IMG/VR virus record: IMGVR_UViG_3300033121_001357
Location: 30,494-94,493 of that record
Strand: one strand, 5' to 3'
Origin: a virus
Taxonomy: Duplodnaviria > Caudoviricetes
Length of the DNA: 64,000 nt
The notes under the pieces are model-generated. The model did no database searches. It worked only from the letters and a program-made list of their open reading frames with translations, and was not told the DNA's origin. A program made the translations under genes and the position numbers. Positions 30,986 to 61,645 of the stretch are shown here, piece by piece; position 1 is the stretch's first letter, and each line of letters starts with the position of its first letter.

Positions 30986-31453
30986 TCACTGTTGTGGCTG
31001 TGAGGATGCAGTAATGGCTGGCTTTTCTGGAAGAGTGGCGGCATGTGGTTTAGCGAGGTTGAATAGAAACGAAACAATAGCAGCTAATATAATGGTGCTA
31101 ACAGCACCAATAATGGTCCACTTGCCCAGAAAGGTGCTCTGAGCAATCTCAATATCTCTGATCCTTTTCTCCTTATCCTTATTTTCAGCCTTCAGATTTT
31201 CTACATCTACGCTAAGTGTGATCACCTTGTTAGGTTCAATGGAGGCAATCTTTGTTTGAATTGCAGAGATTTCTGCCTTAATTGATCCAAGTGCTTCATT
31301 TAACTTGGTGTCTATGTCTGATCTCAATTCAAGGATTTCGTTTCTGAAATCAACAAGATTGGAGAATGACTTCTCTTGTGCGGCGCCCTGTCTTTTCAGT
31401 TCCTCTAGAACATACTTAGACCACTCTGGCCACCCGTTCTGGTTTTCGCTCAT
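30986..31453 (-). CDS. Coiled-coil protein with a C-terminal TM helix (XhlA/holin-like)
   Basis: EKRIRDIE..KWTIIGAVSTIILAAIVSFLF. Confidence 0.55.
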   Translation of the reverse strand: MSENQNGWPEWSKYVLEELKRQGAAQEKSFSNLVDFRNEILELRSDIDTKLNEALGSIKAEISAIQTKIASIEPNKVITLSVDVENLKAENKDKEKRIRDIEIAQSTFLGKWTIIGAVSTIILAAIVSFLFNLAKPHAATLPEKPAITASSQPQQ

Positions 31454-31676
31454 TTTTCGTTCTCCAACTTAAAAGGTAGTACCCGTTTCCCTCCGAATAA
31501 GGTCAATAACCAATAAGACCTTAGGTTAAAACCTATTGTAAGTAGAAGGGTGCTGGAAATAAAGGGGAATAGAATTCCTCGTGTGAGAGACCCGTTCGTG
31601 AACTCACACGTTCATTCTTCGTTAAAACTTGAATGAACCTGAAAATAAATACCGAATTTTACATCTGCTAAGTCTT

Positions 31677-31869
31677 CCCGCGTGAGGACCTGAAATTGCT
31701 GAAAAAATATGGAGCTACCTAGCTTCATATGAGCATTAGCGAAATATGAAGGTGTGAGCTTTTGCGAACAGTGAGTTCCTAAAAAGTAAGAGCGAATACA
31801 TCAAGTTGCAGTTCTCGCATCCTCTCGCGTAAGACCTCGAAATTGCTAAAAAAATATGGAGCTACCTAG
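31677..31869. repeat. Two imperfect direct repeats of about 46 bp in the divergent intergenic region
   Basis: CCCGCGTGAGGACCTGAAATTGCTGAAAAAATATGGAGCTACCTAG (31677-31722) versus CTCGCGTAAGACCTCGAAATTGCTAAAAAAATATGGAGCTACCTAG (31824-31869). Confidence 0.9.
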
Positions 31870-31937
31870 TGAGTTCTGTCGACACTCAAGGGACCCGTAG
31901 TTGCGAGCCCCCGGGGGTCGGATATAGGACTCATGGT

Positions 31938-31971
31938 GTGGTGGTCAGGCGCCACGTTAAACAAACCTGAC
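31938..31971 (+). ncRNA. Leader H-type pseudoknot (first of a recurring family)
   Basis: S1 GTGGTG/CGCCAC, S2 GTCAGG/CCTGAC, linker GTTAAACAAA. Confidence 0.65.
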
Positions 31972-32027
31972 TGGTGCATTCAGTCCACTGGCCAATAATT
32001 AGTGGACATTGAAGCAAGGAGATAGCC

Positions 32028-32339
32028 ATGCTGTCCAACGATTTCTTCCGTTTCATCTTCATCGAGCGTAGTACTCACTCCCGCACGGCAATGCTGGAGA
32101 TGCTGGACGCGCTGTACAACTACTACCCCGAGGGCCGGGAGGAGAACGCGGCCATTCTCACTCTCAGTCTCGACTGCATCAACGCGTGCGAGGGCGAGAG
32201 TGAGAATGAGAAGGACCTCCTCCGCCGCAGGGCCGAGGCCCGGGCCGCGAAGTTCGATCAGAACTTCTTGCAGGATGAGATGCGGGAGCTGGCTGACCTC
32301 CGAATCGCCAAGGAGGCAGAGGAGGCTCAGGACTGGTAA
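32028..32339 (+). CDS. Hypothetical early protein
   Basis: AAGGAG RBS; GC3-rich codons. Confidence 0.7.
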   Translation: MLSNDFFRFIFIERSTHSRTAMLEMLDALYNYYPEGREENAAILTLSLDCINACEGESENEKDLLRRRAEARAAKFDQNFLQDEMRELADLRIAKEAEEAQDW

Positions 32340-32557
32340 GATCCGAGCTTCTTCGCTTCTCTTCCTACAGCCCTCTAGCAGAACGGGCATCACAATAGTT
32401 CTGCTCTCCACTTATACCTATCAGCATCACAACTAAAGTGGTGTTGGTAGATATAAGGGTGCAAGGAAGCCCACTGTGGATGGTCCATAGTGGGTACGGT
32501 TACCTGTCCACTGGGTAGTGGACACGGGCCCTATTGTATAGGGCATGGGGCAGGTAG

Positions 32558-32770
32558 ATGCTGTTCTTGATCTCGTGGCTGCTGAAGGCGAAGTTGCAGT
32601 TCTGGATGCGGTGGGGGAAGTGGACGGCCCGGGGTCTCCTGGGCGCGTACGCGTATATGTACTGCACCAGGTCGGGGGCGATGTTCGTCCCCGTGATCCT
32701 GGCGGCCGTCCTCGTCCTCGCTGTCCGGGAGCGGCGTACGCCGCTCCCCAAGCGGCGACGATTGAACTAG
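32558..32770 (+). CDS. Small membrane protein
   Basis: Hydrophobic MFVPVILAAVLVLAV segment; GC3 bias. Confidence 0.55.
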   Translation: MLFLISWLLKAKLQFWMRWGKWTARGLLGAYAYMYCTRSGAMFVPVILAAVLVLAVRERRTPLPKRRRLN

Positions 32771-32934
32771 GTGATGGGTGTCGAGGACTTCGGTCCTCGA
32801 CATTAAACCACAGCCCCCGTCCAAAGTCGTGGGGCACAGGTGTGCAGAAGCCATCGTCACATAGTGTGGTCGGTGGCACATTCATCGTCTGGCTACGGTC
32901 AGACAATCGCCCTTAGGGGCAGAAAGGCAGCATC

Positions 32935-33552
32935 ATGCTGCGCATCATCTCTCTCTCCCTCGTCCTGTTCGGCGTGTTCGGCGCGTGGCTCGGGATGCTG
33001 ATGGACACGGCGGCCATCGCGACCGCCACCACCAGCAGCATCGCCACCCACCCCTCGTTCGCCGGCATCTCCTGGATCGGCATCGCGGTCATGATCGTCG
33101 GCATGCTCCTCGGGCGCCTGTCCGGCCTCGTCGCCCACCGCGGCAACGTCTCCGCCATCGTCGTGTCCGAGGAGCTCTTCAACCAGGTCGCGGACTTCTG
33201 CGACGTGGAGGTCCGTGACCTCGAGGAGAGCCCGGTGCGGTCCCTGGATGCCGAGGGCATCGAGCAGATCGCGAGCCTCCAGATGAACATTCGGGAGGTG
33301 ATCGCTCGCCTCCCGAAGCCGGCCGATCTGGCCGGTGCCGAGGCCTTCCGCGCCTACAACAAGGCGCAGCGTGAGATGGCGAGCCCGATCGCCACGATCG
33401 CCCGCATCGCTCGCCGTGAGGCGTTCGATGCCCACATCCAGTACCGGCGGGCGCTCCGGGGGACGGTCGGCTTCCCGATGCTCCAGTGCACCCCGTCCTG
33501 CCGGGACATGGCGCAGGTGATTTCTCTGCGGCACAACGGCCTCACTCACTGA
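32935..33552 (+). CDS. Membrane protein (two N-terminal TM helices)
   Basis: Two hydrophobic helices; AAAGG RBS; GC3 bias. Confidence 0.7.
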   Translation: MLRIISLSLVLFGVFGAWLGMLMDTAAIATATTSSIATHPSFAGISWIGIAVMIVGMLLGRLSGLVAHRGNVSAIVVSEELFNQVADFCDVEVRDLEESPVRSLDAEGIEQIASLQMNIREVIARLPKPADLAGAEAFRAYNKAQREMASPIATIARIARREAFDAHIQYRRALRGTVGFPMLQCTPSCRDMAQVISLRHNGLTH

Positions 33553-33649
33553 ACTACTGACTGTCGCCCGTCCTATCCGGGCAACTCTACTACACCCCTG
33601 GTGATAGGGTATCAGGGGAGAAAGGTGTTTAACCCCCATGGGGCATGCC

Positions 33650-34246
33650 ATGGAACGACTGCTCGAGCGGTGTGAAGATAGCGCGACCAAGGGTCGCTTC
33701 GAGAAGCTCATTATTCTGCTGACGCAGGACAAGGAGCTTCGTCTCGAGCTTTTTCCGACGACTCGCGACTTCTTGGTCGCGAGTCCGTTCGGTGGGCTCA
33801 AGATCAGCAACCTCGGCCCGATCACATTCTTGCCTGCGGACCACGTGGTTCATGACGAGAGTGTGATCACTTACCTCGATGTGATCGAGGCGCGCGTCGA
33901 GAGGATCATCAATCGGCGTTACCAGGAGCAGCTTGCTCTGATGACGCATCGCCCCGATGGTCGCATCGATGCTGGCAAGCGTCGGGCCCGGACGTCCCGG
34001 GCACAGCGTGAGGCGGAGGATAGCATCCGTTTCACGCAGCTTCGTTCGCTTTGGGATCTGGGTGCGGTCCAGGTCTCCTTCGCGGATATCGTCACCTTCG
34101 CCGAGAAGCGCGGGTGGCGTGAGGCGGGTGAGGCGCTGGACAACGTGGCTGACTGGCTCGAGACCTGGGTGTCTCAGGGTCGGTTGATTGAGATCGGCGG
34201 TGAGGGCCAGGAGGTCTGGGCCTTCAAGCTGGGAAAGGAGAAGTAA
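33650..34246 (+). CDS. Hypothetical protein (possible C-terminal winged helix)
   Basis: GC3-biased ORF. Confidence 0.65.
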   Translation: MERLLERCEDSATKGRFEKLIILLTQDKELRLELFPTTRDFLVASPFGGLKISNLGPITFLPADHVVHDESVITYLDVIEARVERIINRRYQEQLALMTHRPDGRIDAGKRRARTSRAQREAEDSIRFTQLRSLWDLGAVQVSFADIVTFAEKRGWREAGEALDNVADWLETWVSQGRLIEIGGEGQEVWAFKLGKEK

Positions 34247-34251
34247 GACAG

Positions 34252-35001
34252 ATGGGTGGGTTCCTCATTCTCGTGGCGCTGAACATGGAGAGGGTCCTCA
34301 AGGACCTTCTCTGGTTCGGCCAGGAGAAGGCTAATGAGCGGATGGTTCCGCTCATTAGCCTTCTTGGCACCCTCTCGCCGGTTCTTCGGAACCGGTACTT
34401 CCTCTACCCACATGATGCCCGGTGGGTGGACAACGGCGTCCAGGGCGACGTAATTACGGCGTTGCGTAGCCCGGCCTCGATAACTGAGTGGGCAATTGGA
34501 GTGTGGAAGGCACTTGAGATGGTGCCAGATGCACTTCAGAGCCTTCAGATGCTGGCGACGATGGGTGATGAGGGCATCTGTCTCATGCTTGACTTCTTGG
34601 AAGGCATGGGACTAGTGCCCTGTACGTCACCGGGGCAGGCCTGCACTCATCAGGGGTGCGGGAATCCTGCTCTCATGCCGACCTCGAACGGTGCCCTCTG
34701 CGCGGCCCACTACAAGGTGTGGGTCCGTGGCGGTTTCGAAAGTGAAGCCGAGAAGACGGTCGACTTGCCCGATGTGACCCTAGAGCTGCCTAGTGAGCCG
34801 ACTGGTTGGGATATCGCTCGGCGGGCAGCCGAAGAGCTTGTGCGTGCCTCGGACTATGGTCCGATCGTTCAGGTTAAGGGCCTGGATCGCGCTACGGTCC
34901 TTGTTTCGGTCCTCGAGCGTAGTGGAAAGTCCTCGAGTGTCACGTTGCCCCATGAGAGATGGGTGGAGTTTCTCGCCAGTGTGATCCGCAGTATCAGCTA
35001 A
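34252..35001 (+). CDS. Hypothetical protein with a CxxxxC..CxxH zinc motif
   Basis: CTHQGC..LCAAHY. Confidence 0.6.
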   Translation: MGGFLILVALNMERVLKDLLWFGQEKANERMVPLISLLGTLSPVLRNRYFLYPHDARWVDNGVQGDVITALRSPASITEWAIGVWKALEMVPDALQSLQMLATMGDEGICLMLDFLEGMGLVPCTSPGQACTHQGCGNPALMPTSNGALCAAHYKVWVRGGFESEAEKTVDLPDVTLELPSEPTGWDIARRAAEELVRASDYGPIVQVKGLDRATVLVSVLERSGKSSSVTLPHERWVEFLASVIRSIS

Positions 35002-35055
35002 TCCCTACCTGTCGAGCCCACAACCAGAGTTGTGGGCTTCCAAGTGTGGATTAGT

Positions 35056-35092
35056 GTGGGATGTTGGCACCCACGTTAAATAAGTGCCGACA
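35056..35092 (+). ncRNA. Leader H-type pseudoknot
   Basis: S1 GTGGG/CCCAC, S2 TGTTGGCA/TGCCGACA, linker GTTAAATAAG. Confidence 0.65.
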
Positions 35093-35146
35093 ACAACGGC
35101 CATAGTGGCCATTCTATCGCCTCTGCGGAGGCAAAGGGAGAGCATC

Positions 35147-35602
35147 ATGCTCGGCTCCTTCATGGTGTCCATTCAGTACCTCGTCCACCTGATCAACAAG
35201 ATCAGCAGAAGCTACCACGCGGAGGTGGTGGACCCCCGCGTGGAGTGGGTCCGCGTCAAGAGTGTGAAGAACGACCACGGCTTTGACCTCGGTCCTGTCA
35301 GCTTCCGCAGCTGGGTGCCGCGGCGTGACATCGAGGCCCGGATGATCTGGGCCATCTTCGTCCTGCTCCACGACAAGAGTCTGTTCGAGGAGCGTCAGAG
35401 GGCGTTGGATTTCGTGATGGACGAGATGGCCCGAGAGGGGGATCTGGATCGCTTGGAGGTCTGGCGGGATTTCCTGTATCTGCTGATCCATCCCATTGAG
35501 GACCAGCTCTACAAGGGTGTGATGACCGATGTCGTCGCCGAGCTGGATTTCCACGTCCAGCGGATTCATCGACACCTGGAGATCTCGGCGAACTTGAACT
35601 GA
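35147..35602 (+). CDS. Hypothetical early protein
   Basis: GGGAG RBS before ATG 35147; GC3 bias. Confidence 0.7.
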   Translation: MLGSFMVSIQYLVHLINKISRSYHAEVVDPRVEWVRVKSVKNDHGFDLGPVSFRSWVPRRDIEARMIWAIFVLLHDKSLFEERQRALDFVMDEMAREGDLDRLEVWRDFLYLLIHPIEDQLYKGVMTDVVAELDFHVQRIHRHLEISANLN

Positions 35603-35714
35603 TGCGGTGAGGCCAGTGGGAATTGTTCCAGTTCCCACTGTAAACCCCAGTCCCCGTTGCCAAGGCGTGGGACACTTACCGTGCTAGCAATAGCACAACT
35701 ACAAAGGAGCTATC

Positions 35715-36050
35715 GTGGAATACCTCTTTGGTGTCTGGGGAAATGCTTTCGAGACCAGGGGTCAGGGGCAGACGGAGTTTGGATCTTTCTTCGACTTTCG
35801 TCGGTGCCACATTTGTGGCCGCGAGGAGCGAAAGCCGGCGAACAACCGGTGCTGGGAGCCGTCTCATTGCTCCTGCATCAATGGGTTTGCGTCCATCACG
35901 GAGTGGGATGGCGAAAAGGACCTGGTCGCGTACCGTAACTGCGGCAAGGACGTTCACATCATCTACAGGTCGGGGAAGATCGCCGAGCCCTTCGTGATCC
36001 ACGTTGTTCCACGAGACTACTTCAACTCGCTGGTCAAGCAGCGGTTCTAA
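35715..36050 (+). CDS. Hypothetical Cys-rich protein
   Basis: AAGGAG RBS; GTG start. Confidence 0.65.
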   Translation: MEYLFGVWGNAFETRGQGQTEFGSFFDFRRCHICGREERKPANNRCWEPSHCSCINGFASITEWDGEKDLVAYRNCGKDVHIIYRSGKIAEPFVIHVVPRDYFNSLVKQRF

Positions 36051-36112
36051 TAGTCTGATCAGCCCTATCTGAGTGCGACAGATGGGGCGAATGAGGCTAT
36101 TAGAATTCCTGT

Positions 36113-36147
36113 GTGGTGGCCGGGAGCCACGAAAAATAAACCCGGCT
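36113..36147 (+). ncRNA. Leader H-type pseudoknot
   Basis: S1 GTGGT/GCCAC, S2 GGCCGGG/CCCGGCT, linker GAAAAATAAA. Confidence 0.65.
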
Positions 36148-36202
36148 AGCGCATCCTACCCCTGGCCAACAATTAGGGGTTTCTACGTTCTAGGAGCCAA
36201 CC

Positions 36203-36622
36203 ATGGCGATCATCTCGATGAAGAAGTCCTCGTTCATCCACTACGTCAACATGTTCCTCATGGTGAAGGATTACTCCCAGTTCGAGGACGCCCTGCTGGT
36301 GTTCCTCACCAAGAACTGGCAGGACATTCAGAAGATGCGTTCGTGCTGGGAGGATATGGAGGAGGACGAGACGTCGGGCTTGCCGGCGGCGCTGGTCATC
36401 TTCAGCACGCTGTTCGCCAGCGACTTCCTCTACGATGCTCGAGCCGACCGCCTGATGCGCTTCCTGCGCATCTTGCGGGTTAGCGGGGCGGGCAAGGTGG
36501 TGTTCGATGAGATCATCGCCGACGCGAGGCGAGAGATGAACCTCGAGGAGATGTGGGAGGAGGCGAAGACGGGGCTTTCGGAGAACCCGTTCCAGATCAC
36601 CTTCGAGTTCACTGAGGACTGA
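36203..36622 (+). CDS. Hypothetical early protein
   Basis: AGGAGCCAACCATG start context. Confidence 0.75.
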   Translation: MAIISMKKSSFIHYVNMFLMVKDYSQFEDALLVFLTKNWQDIQKMRSCWEDMEEDETSGLPAALVIFSTLFASDFLYDARADRLMRFLRILRVSGAGKVVFDEIIADARREMNLEEMWEEAKTGLSENPFQITFEFTED

Positions 36623-36681
36623 CGTCGTCTGATCAGGAGGGTGTGGTGCGACACATTCTCCGAATGAGGCTATATCAGTGT

Positions 36682-36714
36682 GCGGTAGCCGAGGCCGCGT
36701 TATAAAAGCCCGGC
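36682..36714 (+). ncRNA. Leader H-type pseudoknot
   Basis: S1 GCGGT/GCCGC, S2 GCCG/CGGC, linker GTTATAAAAG. Confidence 0.6.
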
Positions 36715-36770
36715 AAACAACAACCCGCCCCTGACTGCAAAAATATAGGGGCACATAGAAGGAGCCAACC

Positions 36771-37283
36771 ATGGCCCGTCATTCGATCGTCGTCACCCTC
36801 GCCTCCCTGTCGTACCGGATCCAGGAGATCTCCGGCCTGGAGGGGATGATTCGTCGGTTCATCGGCTACACCCCCAAGACGTACGAGTTGGCGAAGAAGG
36901 AGGCCCTGGCGCTTTGTGCAGAGCACGGTCTCCTCAGTGGTCTCCAGATCATCATGGCGATGGATCCGAAGGAGGCCTCCCCCGTCCAGCAGATCATGGG
37001 TGCCCGCTTCGGCGTCCAGATCGTCAAGTGCACGGATGTGGCGGCGAAGATCCTCCCGATCAAGCATCGGGTCAAGGTCACCGGGTTCACGAAGGAGGTG
37101 ATGGACGAGCTGGAGCGTGAGCTGGAGAGTCTGATCCACCAGAACGCGACCAAGCAGATGGAGGCCTACGGCCTCCTCGAGAAGTTCGGCTTTCGTTCGT
37201 TCAGGTTCGACAACGACGGGAACCTCGTCGCTGTCACTCATCACCCGGTCTGGGGCGAGTCCTGGACCGAGGCCGTCAACTGA
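36771..37283 (+). CDS. Hypothetical early protein
   Basis: Same AGGAGCCAACCATG start context as 36203. Confidence 0.75.
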   Translation: MARHSIVVTLASLSYRIQEISGLEGMIRRFIGYTPKTYELAKKEALALCAEHGLLSGLQIIMAMDPKEASPVQQIMGARFGVQIVKCTDVAAKILPIKHRVKVTGFTKEVMDELERELESLIHQNATKQMEAYGLLEKFGFRSFRFDNDGNLVAVTHHPVWGESWTEAVN

Positions 37284-37512
37284 TCCTGTTCACTGACTGA
37301 GCGGTCGAGGGCTTAGACTCTCGGCCGCTTCCCAGTGCACAGGAGTGCATAGACCTGGCTAAGTCTTAAAACTAGCCTACGGGGGAGGGGGTGCCCTAGA
37401 CACATCCCCTATGCCACACCTGGGCTATCTAATTCAGGTAGCTGACATATACTGCTGCCATGCCATGGGTTGGTATGGGTGTCAGCCAGCAAAACTCCAA
37501 TAGGAGAAACCC

Positions 37513-40500
37513 ATGACCCGTCACGCCGCCGTCATCGCCGCCCTGGTCGCCCACATCAGCGAGCTCGGCGCCCAGGCCCCGACCCACCAGAACAGCCGCA
37601 AGAGCCTGGACGAGATCGCCGAGGCCTTGGGCGTCAAGGTGAAGGGCGCGAAGAAGGGGCCGGACCGGATCGCCACCGAGGCCTGCAACCGGGCCCGGAA
37701 GCTGTCCGAGCTCGACGCCGAGCAGATCGTCGACCACTTCGGCCTCGAGGAGCTGGTCGAGCCGTCCGACGAGAGCCTCGGCAGCGAGGAAGACGTCATC
37801 GACGCGAACACCCACATGGCGGCCAGCCTGGCCGCGAAGGAGGAGGCGATGCGGGAGAAGCAGGTCGCGGAGCAGATCGCGGAGAACGTGATGAGCGCCG
37901 TCGAGAAGACCGACGAGCCCATCACGGAGGAGAAGCGCGAGGAGCACGAGGAGGTGAGTGTGGAGCCGCAGAAGGTGGAGGAGAAGAAGGTGGACGAGCA
38001 GCCCAAGGTCGACAACCCCGAGCCCAAGGTGGAGGAGAAGGTCGAGGAGAAGAAGCCGACCAAGGAGGAGCTCCTCCAGGCCGCCAAGGACTTCGAGCAG
38101 GTCGCGCAGGGCCAGGTGCCCGCCACCGTGCTGAACAGCACGCGGCGCATCGGGCAGTGGACGCTGGAGCTGTTGCCCAAGAACGCGGGCTTCACCATCG
38201 TCAGCTCGAGCCACCAGAAGCGGAACATCTCCGCGACGATGGTCGCGGCCTTCGCCTCGAAGGTCCGGACGATCCCCGTGAATCTGACGGTCGAGAAGTT
38301 CGTCGGTCGGGCGAACGACAAGATCCTCAGCGAGCTGTACAAGTTCAGCATCGACGAGGAGAAGAACATCAAGGCCCGCGGGGAGTTCCTCGCCCGTCTC
38401 GTGAGCATCGAGACCGCGTCCGCGAAGGTCCTGGCCAAGGCCTCGGGCTGGAAGGCCTCGCACCTGCAGGGCGAGCGCCAAAAGATGATGCGGCTCTACG
38501 GCACCGCCAAGGACCGGATCGGAAACTTCAAGGTGGCGCTGGACACGGCGACCACCGGCGATCAGCACGCGGCGAACTTCTACGCCGCGGCCAAGGCGTT
38601 CGGGCTCCTGGAGGAGGGCGCGGACCTCTTCGGGCTGGACATCACCAGCTCGAGCGTCAAGGCGACGATCCCGCAGCCCCCGACGTCGCAGAGCGAGCAG
38701 AAGAAGCCCATCGAGGAGAAGCAGGTCGACAGCAAGTCGACCCCCACCGCGGCCACCGAGCCGCAGCAGGAGAAGCCCGTGACCGAGCGCAAGGCCGGTA
38801 TCATCAGCAGCAAGCTCTACAACGACCGCGTCGAGGTGCTCCGCAAGGAGCACTCGGCCTTCGTCGAGCACAATGAGGAGCGCGAGAAGAAGTTCTGGGC
38901 GGGCTTCGCCGGCCACGTCCAGAAGTTGAACGACCTGCTGTCCCAGCAGGCCACCAAGCACAACGTCCAGGCCGTCAGCAAGCTGATGGCCTCCATCGAG
39001 GACTCCTGTGCGGCCCGCATGGTGCGGATCCAGAAGCAGCAGGAGCAGCAGCAGGACGCGCCCGAGGGCGCCAACCAGCCGACCGATGAGTCGGTGAAGG
39101 AGACCGTCGTGAGCGAGCAGCAGCAGACCACCGAGGCCCCGATCAACACCCAGGATCAGGGGGGCGCGGGCGCGGTCGTCGAGACCAAGACCGAGACGGT
39201 GGTGGAGACCAAGGCCGACGTCAAGACCGAGCAGGCCCCCGAGGCCACGGTCGAGGTCGTGACGGAGGAGACCCCGAAGGAGACCTCGGAGCCCGACGCC
39301 GAGCTGGCGACCGAGGACAAGAAGGACGAGAAGAAGGAGGAGAAGGTGAGCAAGAAGGAGAAGTCCAGCAAGGGCAACTGGACGGTGTGGGGCAAGATCG
39401 TCGCCGCCGCCCTGGCCATGGACAACCGGATCGTCATGTGGGGCGCGCCGCGCAAGGCGCACCGGGACGACTACCAGAAGGCGCTGAGCGCCGTCAAGGC
39501 CTCGATGGAGGGCGCCGAGGACAAGCCGTCCAACGGCAAGAACGTCGGGGCGGTGAAGGCCCTGAACACGTTGCTGTTGGAGACGAACGGTTTGGTGACC
39601 GGCGTGGCCCGCGAGATCGTGGGGGCCCAGACCGTCACCATCGACGGCAAGACGAAGACCATCGCGGAGTGGGAGGGCGGGCAGCTCGAGGCCGTCTTCA
39701 AGAACGGCCACTTGCTGAAGGCGCGCGGCTTCCTGAACCGCAGCAAGCAGGAGATCCTGGCGAAGCCCGAGGCCAAGCAGGCCATCGCCACGAACCTCGC
39801 GGTGAAGCTCACCGAGATGTTGCAGGGGAAGCAGGACCTGCTGCTCCCGGTCCTCGCCCTGGCCTCGTTCTGGATCGGCCGCAGCGTGCCGACCACCGAG
39901 AAGTTCGGTCGGTGGATCAGCCAGCAGGTCGGTGAGATCAAGTCGGACAAGGACTTCGAGTCCTTCGTCTACGACCTGAACAGCCGGCGGAGCCTCGTCG
40001 AGCGCCTCGAGAAGACGGTGCCGAACGAAACCTCCTCGCTCATCGCGGCCAAGGAGAAGCTGGCCGAGATGGAGAAGAAGGCGAACGAGCTGGACGGGGA
40101 TCGCTGCGCCATCGAGCTGAAGATCGACGGGCAGTGGAACCCGGCCCTCTTCAACGAGAAGGACATGGGCCTCTCGTTCGAGGGCCTGCTCAACACCCAC
40201 ATGCAGAAGCTCCTGAACTTCTGCCACAGCGTCCGCACCATCGACGAGAAGGACCCGAAGGTCCTCAACGCCCTGCATATGTGCGGGGTCAGTGGGAAGA
40301 AGGACGAGACCGTCGACATCACCACGATCCAGCACCTGGCCCTGCAGGTGTTCTGGCTGGTGATGGACATGTGCAGCAACAGCCTCGACCAGAGCTGGTT
40401 CGAGGTGCAGTGCGCCCTCCGCAACATGGAGGCGCTCGAGGTCCAGTCCAAGACCCCGAACAAGCGTGGGGTCATCAAGGCCACGGCGTGGTTCATCTAC

Positions 40501-61319: not shown

Positions 61320-61407
61320 GGGGATGTGGCGAAATAGGCAAACGCGGTGGTCTCAAACACCACTTGGTCTTAACTGGCCCCTGAGAGTTCGAGTCTCTCC
61401 ATCCCTA
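61320..61407 (+). tRNA. trnL: tRNA-Leu(CAA)
   Basis: Acceptor GGGGATG/CATCCCT, anticodon arm GTGGT-CTCAAAC-ACCAC, long variable arm, T arm GAGAG-TTCGAGT-CTCTC; CCA not encoded. Confidence 0.92.
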
Positions 61408-61544
61408 CTTGGGTCTTTTCTTGCATAGACATGAAAGAATGCAAGTGGTGGAGGTGCCGAGAGGTGCCCTAAATTTCTCCAAATAAGAGGCAGGTGTTCC
61501 TCACTTAAAGTAGCCTGCGCCTACTGGAGAGAAGCGCAGTTTAT

Positions 61545-61630
61545 GCCTTAGCTGACAGTGGCTATGTCAACAGCCTAAGGTGGCTGTGTCTTGACGAAGA
61601 TGTGAATGGTTCGAATCCATTCCTAAGGCA
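61545..61630 (+). tRNA. Non-canonical tRNA-like gene (8-nt anticodon loop)
   Basis: GCCTTAG/CTAAGGC, D stem GACA/TGTC, ACAGC-CTAAGGTG-GCTGT, variable arm, GAATGG-TTCGAAT-CCATTC. Confidence 0.7.
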
Positions 61631-61645
61631 CACCTGGAGAAATAA

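Follow-up and report, generated by a model that had tools for sequence, protein, structure and literature searches.

Two adjacent intergenic regions in the early gene block of this uncultivated giant phage each begin with a two-storey RNA hairpin that starts at the upstream stop codon, folds on the plus strand, differs between the two copies by compensated base changes, and is conserved in other strains. The RNA-level structure of both hairpins is well supported by G-U pairs that are available on the plus strand only, by pairing that exceeds that of slid controls, by changes on both sides of the same base pairs, and by strain substitutions that keep pairing. The reading that we favor, while stopping somewhat short of calling it probable, is that of a T7-type processing hairpin for a double-stranded RNA nuclease such as RNase III, which would also protect the new 3′-end. 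The hairpins are most likely a real but fairly ordinary kind of signal, and as it stands the pair opens no new question. It contributes a well-documented example to the growing number of large phages in which two-storey RNA hairpins punctuate the early operons, and the covariation is seen from copy to copy as well as among natural strains.

Genomic setting and architecture

The window, by which we mean the entire stretch of 64,000 nucleotides that was analyzed, corresponds to bases 30494-94493 of a 94.5-kb IMG/VR viral contig with a CheckV completeness of ~46%. The minus strand to ~31450 carries the structural genes for the tail sheath, the major head protein, the portal, and the large terminase. 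The large terminase is 25-33% identical to those of jumbo myoviruses, among them Moorella phage MTATph1, Bacillus phage 0305phi8-36, and Acinetobacter phage ME3. From ~32030, the plus strand is occupied by small orphan genes with a G+C content of 58-66% and GC3 values of up to 0.98, and these genes are separated by intergenic regions of 80-230 nt, all of which are densely folded. The composition of the window is split sharply between positions 1-32000 and 32000-60000, with the structural genes at 44-51% G+C and the plus-strand early block at 58-66%; the GC3 value of 0.98 is that of the 1225-aa gene at 37513-41190. Two 50-nt direct repeats that are 84% identical to one another (31673-31722 and 31820-31869) occupy the divergent stretch that separates the structural block from the early block, and these are candidates for early promoters or regulatory sites.

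None of the neighboring proteins has a match in Pfam, and all of them are orphans. Paralogy among the flanking proteins was looked for and none was found, which argues that the leaders were not copied along with the genes. A distant blastn search against GenBank phages gave no match, scans of IMG/VR with the 139-aa protein and with the terminase found no relatives, and a search with the 111-aa protein returned only the query itself. A HMMER search of 1.84 billion representatives gave the sister-strain protein as the sole match. When the protein encoded between the two hairpins was used as a query, two contigs from ENA (L007 and L008) were recovered that are ~90% identical to and syntenic with positions 33415-39854. 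A contig from JGI (L027) carries hairpin 2 and leader C. The strain variants in which the hairpins are present, two in number, come from other metagenomes.

Each hairpin is placed between genes on the same strand and is the first module of its intergenic region, designated leader B (36051-36202) or leader C (36623-36770). The two leaders can be aligned over their full length with an identity of 61%. Both hairpins are irregular helices of ~28 steps with 25 pairs, and their parts are listed in Table 1. The constant middle of the helix is composed of 4 bp (GUCU/AGGC), a G·G mismatch, two A-U pairs, a 2 × 2 CA/GA loop, and a closing G-C pair, with the internal region forming a nearly symmetric 5 × 5 module that holds the two A-U pairs. 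This central module is located 10 bp below the apical loop, and the 10-bp upper stem and the 2 × 2 loop are found in 5/5 sequences. The conserved 5′ half is identical in the two hairpins, and the segment of hairpin 1 has two transitions in L007. The 3′ strand of the module can also be given as CGAAUGAGG. A sequence-only reading had previously described hairpins at 36053-36097 and 36627-36670. Both are present exactly as quoted, but the elements are longer than had been recognized (36044-36106 and 36618-36679) and possess a covarying outer stem that includes the stop codon.

Table 1. Coordinates and parts of the two hairpins and of the leaders that follow them
Feature	Position	Strand	Description
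Hairpin 1, full element	36044-36106	+	63 nt, 28-nt arms; RNAfold -36.9 kcal/mol; covariance-model match 76 bits
Hairpin 1, outer stem		+	13 bp; encloses stop UAA (36048-36050) of gene 35715-36050
Hairpin 1, central module, conserved 5′ half	36053-36062	+	GUCU stem, G mismatch, AU, CA, closing G
Hairpin 1, upper stem interior and apical loop	36063-36087	+	7-nt loop at 36072-36078
Hairpin 1, central module, conserved 3′ half	36088-36100	+	CGAAUGAGGCUAU
Rest of leader B	36107-36202	+	Pseudoknot-like hairpin, third hairpin, SD-ATG block 36192-36206; before gene 36203-36622
Hairpin 2, full element	36618-36679	+	62 nt, 28-nt arms; RNAfold -29.8 kcal/mol; covariance-model match 75 bits
Hairpin 2, outer stem		+	Encloses stop UGA (36620-36622) of gene 36203-36622
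Hairpin 2, central module, conserved 5′ half	36627-36636	+	Identical to 36053-36062
Hairpin 2, upper stem interior and apical loop	36637-36660	+	6-nt loop at 36646-36651; two G-U pairs
Hairpin 2, central module, conserved 3′ half	36661-36673	+	
Rest of leader C	36680-36770	+	Module order as in leader B, SD-ATG block 36760-36774; before gene 36771-37283

Folding, covariation, and strain variants

The genome-wide motif search that the earlier reading had suggested was carried out, and with a free spacer the flank pattern was found to match exactly 2 times, whether the window or the whole 94.5-kb contig is searched, compared with 0.02 matches expected by chance. No third copy was found with a covariance model in the window (with filters off) or in the whole contig. 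Exact-pattern scans of IMG/VR for relatives returned either nothing or chance matches that do not fold, and a scan of JGI metagenomes gave 13 pattern matches, all of which are weak against the model (12-26 bits compared with 70-76 bits).

The plus-strand RNAs of copies 1 and 2 were determined to fold at -33.1 and -24.4 kcal/mol, with z-scores of -7.9 and -3.4, respectively. The reverse strand of copy 2, taken as RNA, folds no better than shuffled sequences because the stem holds two G-U pairs, and these pairs make the fold specific to the plus strand. As DNA, hairpin 2 is not better than the shuffles on either strand. These values, together with the covariation and the pairing-keeping strain substitutions, uphold the proposal that the leaders act as RNA structure.

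Between the two copies, the flank and loop positions are identical at 29/29 and the interior of the upper stem at 8/20 (Fisher p = 1.4e-6). Every pair of the upper stem is kept; 6/10 have been swapped on both sides and 4/10 are identical, and thus the stems had been described too strongly as completely covarying. For the two copies and five sequences available, all of which belong to one phage lineage, 95.2% of the cells of the 25-pair structure are paired compared with 36-52% for slid partners, and 11/25 pairs have changed on both sides, in the outer and upper stems alike. The stem interiors drift freely provided that pairing is kept. Their divergence, in copies that are 574 nt apart, may serve to limit mispairing and deletion by recombination.

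The same comparison bears on whether the hairpins might be passive structural elements that function without cleavage, as a block to 3′-exonucleases, as a pause site or weak terminator, or as an insulator that keeps upstream translation from disturbing the folding of the next leader. The identical flanks would then reflect the common descent of leaders B and C rather than recognition. This explanation, to which we give some weight but which we consider somewhat unlikely, draws on the dense folding of all intergenic regions in the block, on other post-stop hairpins that have the same size without any common sequence, on the alignment of the two leaders throughout, and on the flank and loop positions that do vary in L007. 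However, at an overall identity of 61%, the contrast between 29/29 flank and loop positions and 8/20 stem positions is unlike neutral drift. An intrinsic terminator was rejected as an identity for the hairpins; a T-run (U-tract in the RNA) is absent after both of them, and a plus-strand scan reports no terminator-like site there.

The strain variants provide further substitutions. Hairpin 1 of L007 contains two changes of C-G to U·G, one double change of G·U to U-A at the base, and two breaks. The break that falls within the 2-bp A-U segment abolishes the CTGATCAG palindrome together with its GATC, and the 5′ strand of the internal loop in this copy reads GUUUGACCAG. In hairpin 2 of the same strain, the loop is changed from GUGCGA to GUACAA and two G-U pairs have become G-C pairs. 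A C·A mismatch in the outer stem of hairpin 2 (36623:36674) is repaired to C-G in L007 and to U-A in L027. Over five post-stop hairpins in L007, L008, and L027, paired bases have undergone 9 substitutions after which the pair can still form and 2 after which it cannot (P about 9e-4, with the chance of keeping a pair set at 0.317). All of the counted hairpin substitutions are transitions, compared with a background transition share of 0.56. This pattern of substitution indicates that the structure is under selection at the RNA level.

The nucleotides of the central module are held to different degrees. The first eleven bases of CGAAUGAGGCUAU (columns 45-55, CGAAUGAGGCU) are invariant in 5/5 sequences, and the AU that follows is altered only in L027, by one A to G change in hairpin 2. 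Neither the apical loop nor the module's 5′ strand is strictly fixed across the strains. The GATCA/GAATG internal loop and the apical GTGCGA, which the sequence-only reading had called conserved, are identical within this genome, but in L007 the loop of copy 2 reads GUACAA and the 5′ loop strand of copy 1 reads GUUUGACCAG. Over the 62 positions of its central module and loop, L007 has 4 changes, which is about the background rate, and the constraint on sequence is thus possibly weak. The earlier proposal of a recognition element for a protein or nuclease is compatible with a conserved module set between variable helices, but a sequence-specific reading of the loop is doubtful since transitions are found in a sister strain in both the apical loop and the 5′ loop strand.

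These observations also weigh on a more specific alternative, in which the hairpins are operators for a phage RNA-binding protein or a sequence-specific endoribonuclease that reads the central module and coordinates the two adjacent genes. A conserved module between two freely covarying helices is what such an operator might look like, there are only two copies and they are at neighboring genes, and the orphan status of all of the neighboring proteins leaves room for a novel partner. We nevertheless find this unlikely, as no candidate partner was identified, the next start codon is ~100 nt downstream of the hairpin, which leaves the ribosome-binding site uncovered, and the loop and module 5′ strand vary between strains. 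It is quite improbable, in our estimation, that a phage-encoded sequence-specific RNA-binding protein or endoribonuclease of no detectable known family forms, together with the pseudoknot-hairpin-RBS leaders and the twister candidate described below, a phage-autonomous system for cutting and individually tuning the early messages.

Candidate roles in a presumed early transcript

In the favored reading, the phage, a large one with a contractile tail, would make a polycistronic early transcript in which the hairpins serve as cis-acting RNA elements. The two-turn helix would be bound by an endonuclease specific for double strands, for which the RNase III of the host is the simplest candidate. Since the helix is expected to be distorted at the central module, a nick would be made on one strand only, probably the invariant 3′ strand (36088-36100 in hairpin 1). 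The upstream mRNA would then end in the 10-bp upper hairpin, which would block 3′-exonucleases, and the downstream mRNA would start a few nucleotides before its own pseudoknot, hairpin, and ribosome-binding site, with the pseudoknot possibly acting as a 5′ stabilizer. The separation of the mRNA ends would make the neighboring genes independent of one another in stability and translation. A gene for RNase III or for a dsRBD protein was looked for on the 94.5-kb fragment and none was found, which is neutral if the enzyme is that of the host.

Substrates of RNase III are about two helical turns long, ~11 bp are required between the cut and the loop, and where the helix has internal loops or mismatches, only one phosphodiester is cut and the 3′ hairpin that remains gives protection from exonucleases (PMC1540722, PMC3867540). 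As judged by geometry alone, the two hairpins fit substrates of this type, with a two-turn imperfect helix and an internal loop below the 10-bp upper stem. Contigs from RNA libraries cover the region, but assembled contigs of this kind cannot prove an RNA origin; one of them spans hairpin 2 without a break, which counts against the processing reading. The shares in river, sludge, and wastewater runs are 0.05-0.33, with four runs covered, and these are Logan assembled contigs that are uninformative on RNA ends.

The RNase III signals of the T7 early polycistronic mRNA (R0.3, R0.5, R1, R1.1, and R1.3) resemble the hairpins in being placed between early genes and in having a two-tier hairpin in which an internal loop underlies an upper stem of ~10 bp. 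The two systems also agree in that the flanks and loop region are conserved and the stem interiors vary with compensation. When the early intergenic regions of T7 were folded with the same tool, upper stems of 9-13 bp were obtained between CUCAAGG and CCUUUAUGAU. Features for RNase III sites are absent from the annotations of the SPO1 records and of the T7 RefSeq table. The functional logic in T7 is one nick together with a protective 3′ hairpin (PMC1540722).

There are also clear differences from the T7 signals. The flanks have no sequence similarity to the T7 sites, and the loop of T7 is replaced here by a 5 × 5 module with two A-U pairs. At 28 steps, the helix exceeds that of T7 in length, and the stop codon lies within its base. 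Next comes a compact leader composed of a pseudoknot, a hairpin, and a ribosome-binding site. Compliance with the proximal- and distal-box rules of E. coli was not seen either; these rules are host-specific and may not be those of this host. With a likeness to the T7 signals that would be one of function and no sequence in common, the hairpins cannot be filed as proven members of that group. If cleavage does occur, the 62-nt element could be used as a portable processing and insulating part, and T7-style cutting of messages would be widespread in uncultivated jumbo-type phages.

A match to Twister-P5 (RF02684) was found at 32770-32831 on the plus strand with a score of 37.9 bits, compared with a gathering score of 37.6, and an E-value of 2.5e-4 for the window. 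It sits in a 595-nt slot (32340-32934) of the same block, and this slot is probably noncoding since the ORF at 32545-32916 has a GC3 of 0.52 compared with 0.83-0.93 for its neighbors. The location of this match in another intercistronic slot suggests that the transcript is processed.

The twister match in a neighboring slot raises the question of whether the two hairpins could themselves be small self-cleaving ribozymes of an undescribed class, with a role like that of the twister candidate. Internal loop and apical loop nucleotides are conserved, and the CUGAUCA...GAA arrangement superficially resembles the core of a hammerhead. However, neither hairpin was matched by any Rfam covariance model, those for ribozymes included, whether the gathering score was applied or E-values of up to 10 were allowed. 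By inspection, the base that corresponds to the essential G8 of the hammerhead is a C, and the equivalents of C3 and U4 are paired in the lower stem. Moreover, known ribozymes have a tertiary architecture that one hairpin with no branches does not provide, and we assign this explanation an extremely small probability. Two further identities were rejected by inspection: a k-turn or box C/D motif (there are no tandem G·A pairs beside a 3-nt bulge) and an integron attC site (there are no GTTRRRY boxes).

Cassette exchange at the leaders and other post-stop hairpins

In L027, the gene at 36771-37283 is missing and leader C runs directly into the ATG of gene 37513 (1225 aa), as seen in L027 positions 1-932. 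This joint (36769>37512) is also found in RNA-library contigs, and a second joint (36146>35641) links the pseudoknot of leader B back to 35641. Entire gene cassettes, exchanged at the leaders, distinguish strains of this phage. An allele of gene 35715 that is 50% identical is found beside a leader that is 90% identical, and the exchange points are at the SD-ATG block and inside the coding ends, outside of the hairpin.

The 111-aa Cys-rich protein encoded at 35715-36050, upstream of hairpin 1, is only 50% identical to its counterpart in L007 (2301-2639), and the neighboring genes and leaders of the same strains are ~88-93% identical. Either the allele has been swapped or this protein evolves very fast. 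The SD-ATG block AGGAGCCAACCATGG is identical in leaders B and C, and both copies in L007 read AGGAGCCAATCATGG. The two copies have thus changed in concert, by either gene conversion or a shared constraint.

The PeSL (promoter-early stem-loop) motifs of T4-type phages have been reported as composite intergenic elements that are conserved, border small orphan genes in plastic regions, and are tied to indels and gene replacement between close relatives (PMC4122927). Cassettes of small orphan genes differ between strains at the leaders here as well. However, PeSL are defined by a near-consensus sigma-70 early promoter beside a terminator-like stem-loop, and no such promoter is detectable here; the stems described here are also much longer and irregular.

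An element that acts at the DNA level could be such a PeSL-like recombination site for the shuffling of cassettes, a promoter (either of a sigma-70-like type or one used by a phage RNA polymerase), or a protein-binding palindrome (CTGATCAG). The differences in gene cassettes at the leaders (the join of leader C to 37513 in L027 and the further joints) are in keeping with this possibility, and a weak pair of -35/-10-like elements can be drawn by eye. We consider it very improbable, given that the G-U pairs are on the plus strand only, that hairpin 2 as DNA folds no better than shuffles, that the palindrome and its GATC are lost in hairpin 1 of L007, and that the exchange points are not at the hairpin. 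A promoter scan finds no sigma-70-like site on the plus strand in 31400-37600, the -35/-10-like bases change in L007 (the -35-like bases in hairpin 2) while the would-be spacer is invariant, and the template-strand hairpin is unstable. The idea that the conserved bases are promoter elements, which had been named as an outcome that would overturn the RNA interpretation, is therefore disfavored.

A promoter of the N4 type consists of a stable short hairpin on the template strand with a stem of 5-7 bp and a loop of 3 nt. This identity was rejected for the hairpins; the sizes of the stem and loop differ, and on the minus strand hairpin 2 does not outperform shuffled sequences as either RNA or DNA.

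Hairpins that follow the stop codon are not restricted to the two described above. Three further genes of the block end in hairpins that are unrelated in sequence (34997-35055, 37284-37344, and the less regular 31870-31932). They have the same build, with arms of 27-28 nt, and are followed by a pseudoknot-like hairpin, another hairpin, and a ribosome-binding site. The hairpin at 34997-35055 is the same at 59/59 positions in strains with differences of 8-15% in their genes. The four post-stop hairpins at 34997-35055, 36044-36106, 36618-36679, and 37284-37344 have unrelated stems with arms of 27-28 nt and a similar spacing of mismatches, and the common arm length suggests a length constraint or a molecular ruler.

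Elsewhere in the window, ARAGORN makes a tRNA-like call with a four-base anticodon (aagg) at 61545-61631 on the plus strand, which adjoins a tRNA-Leu(CAA) at 61320-61408.
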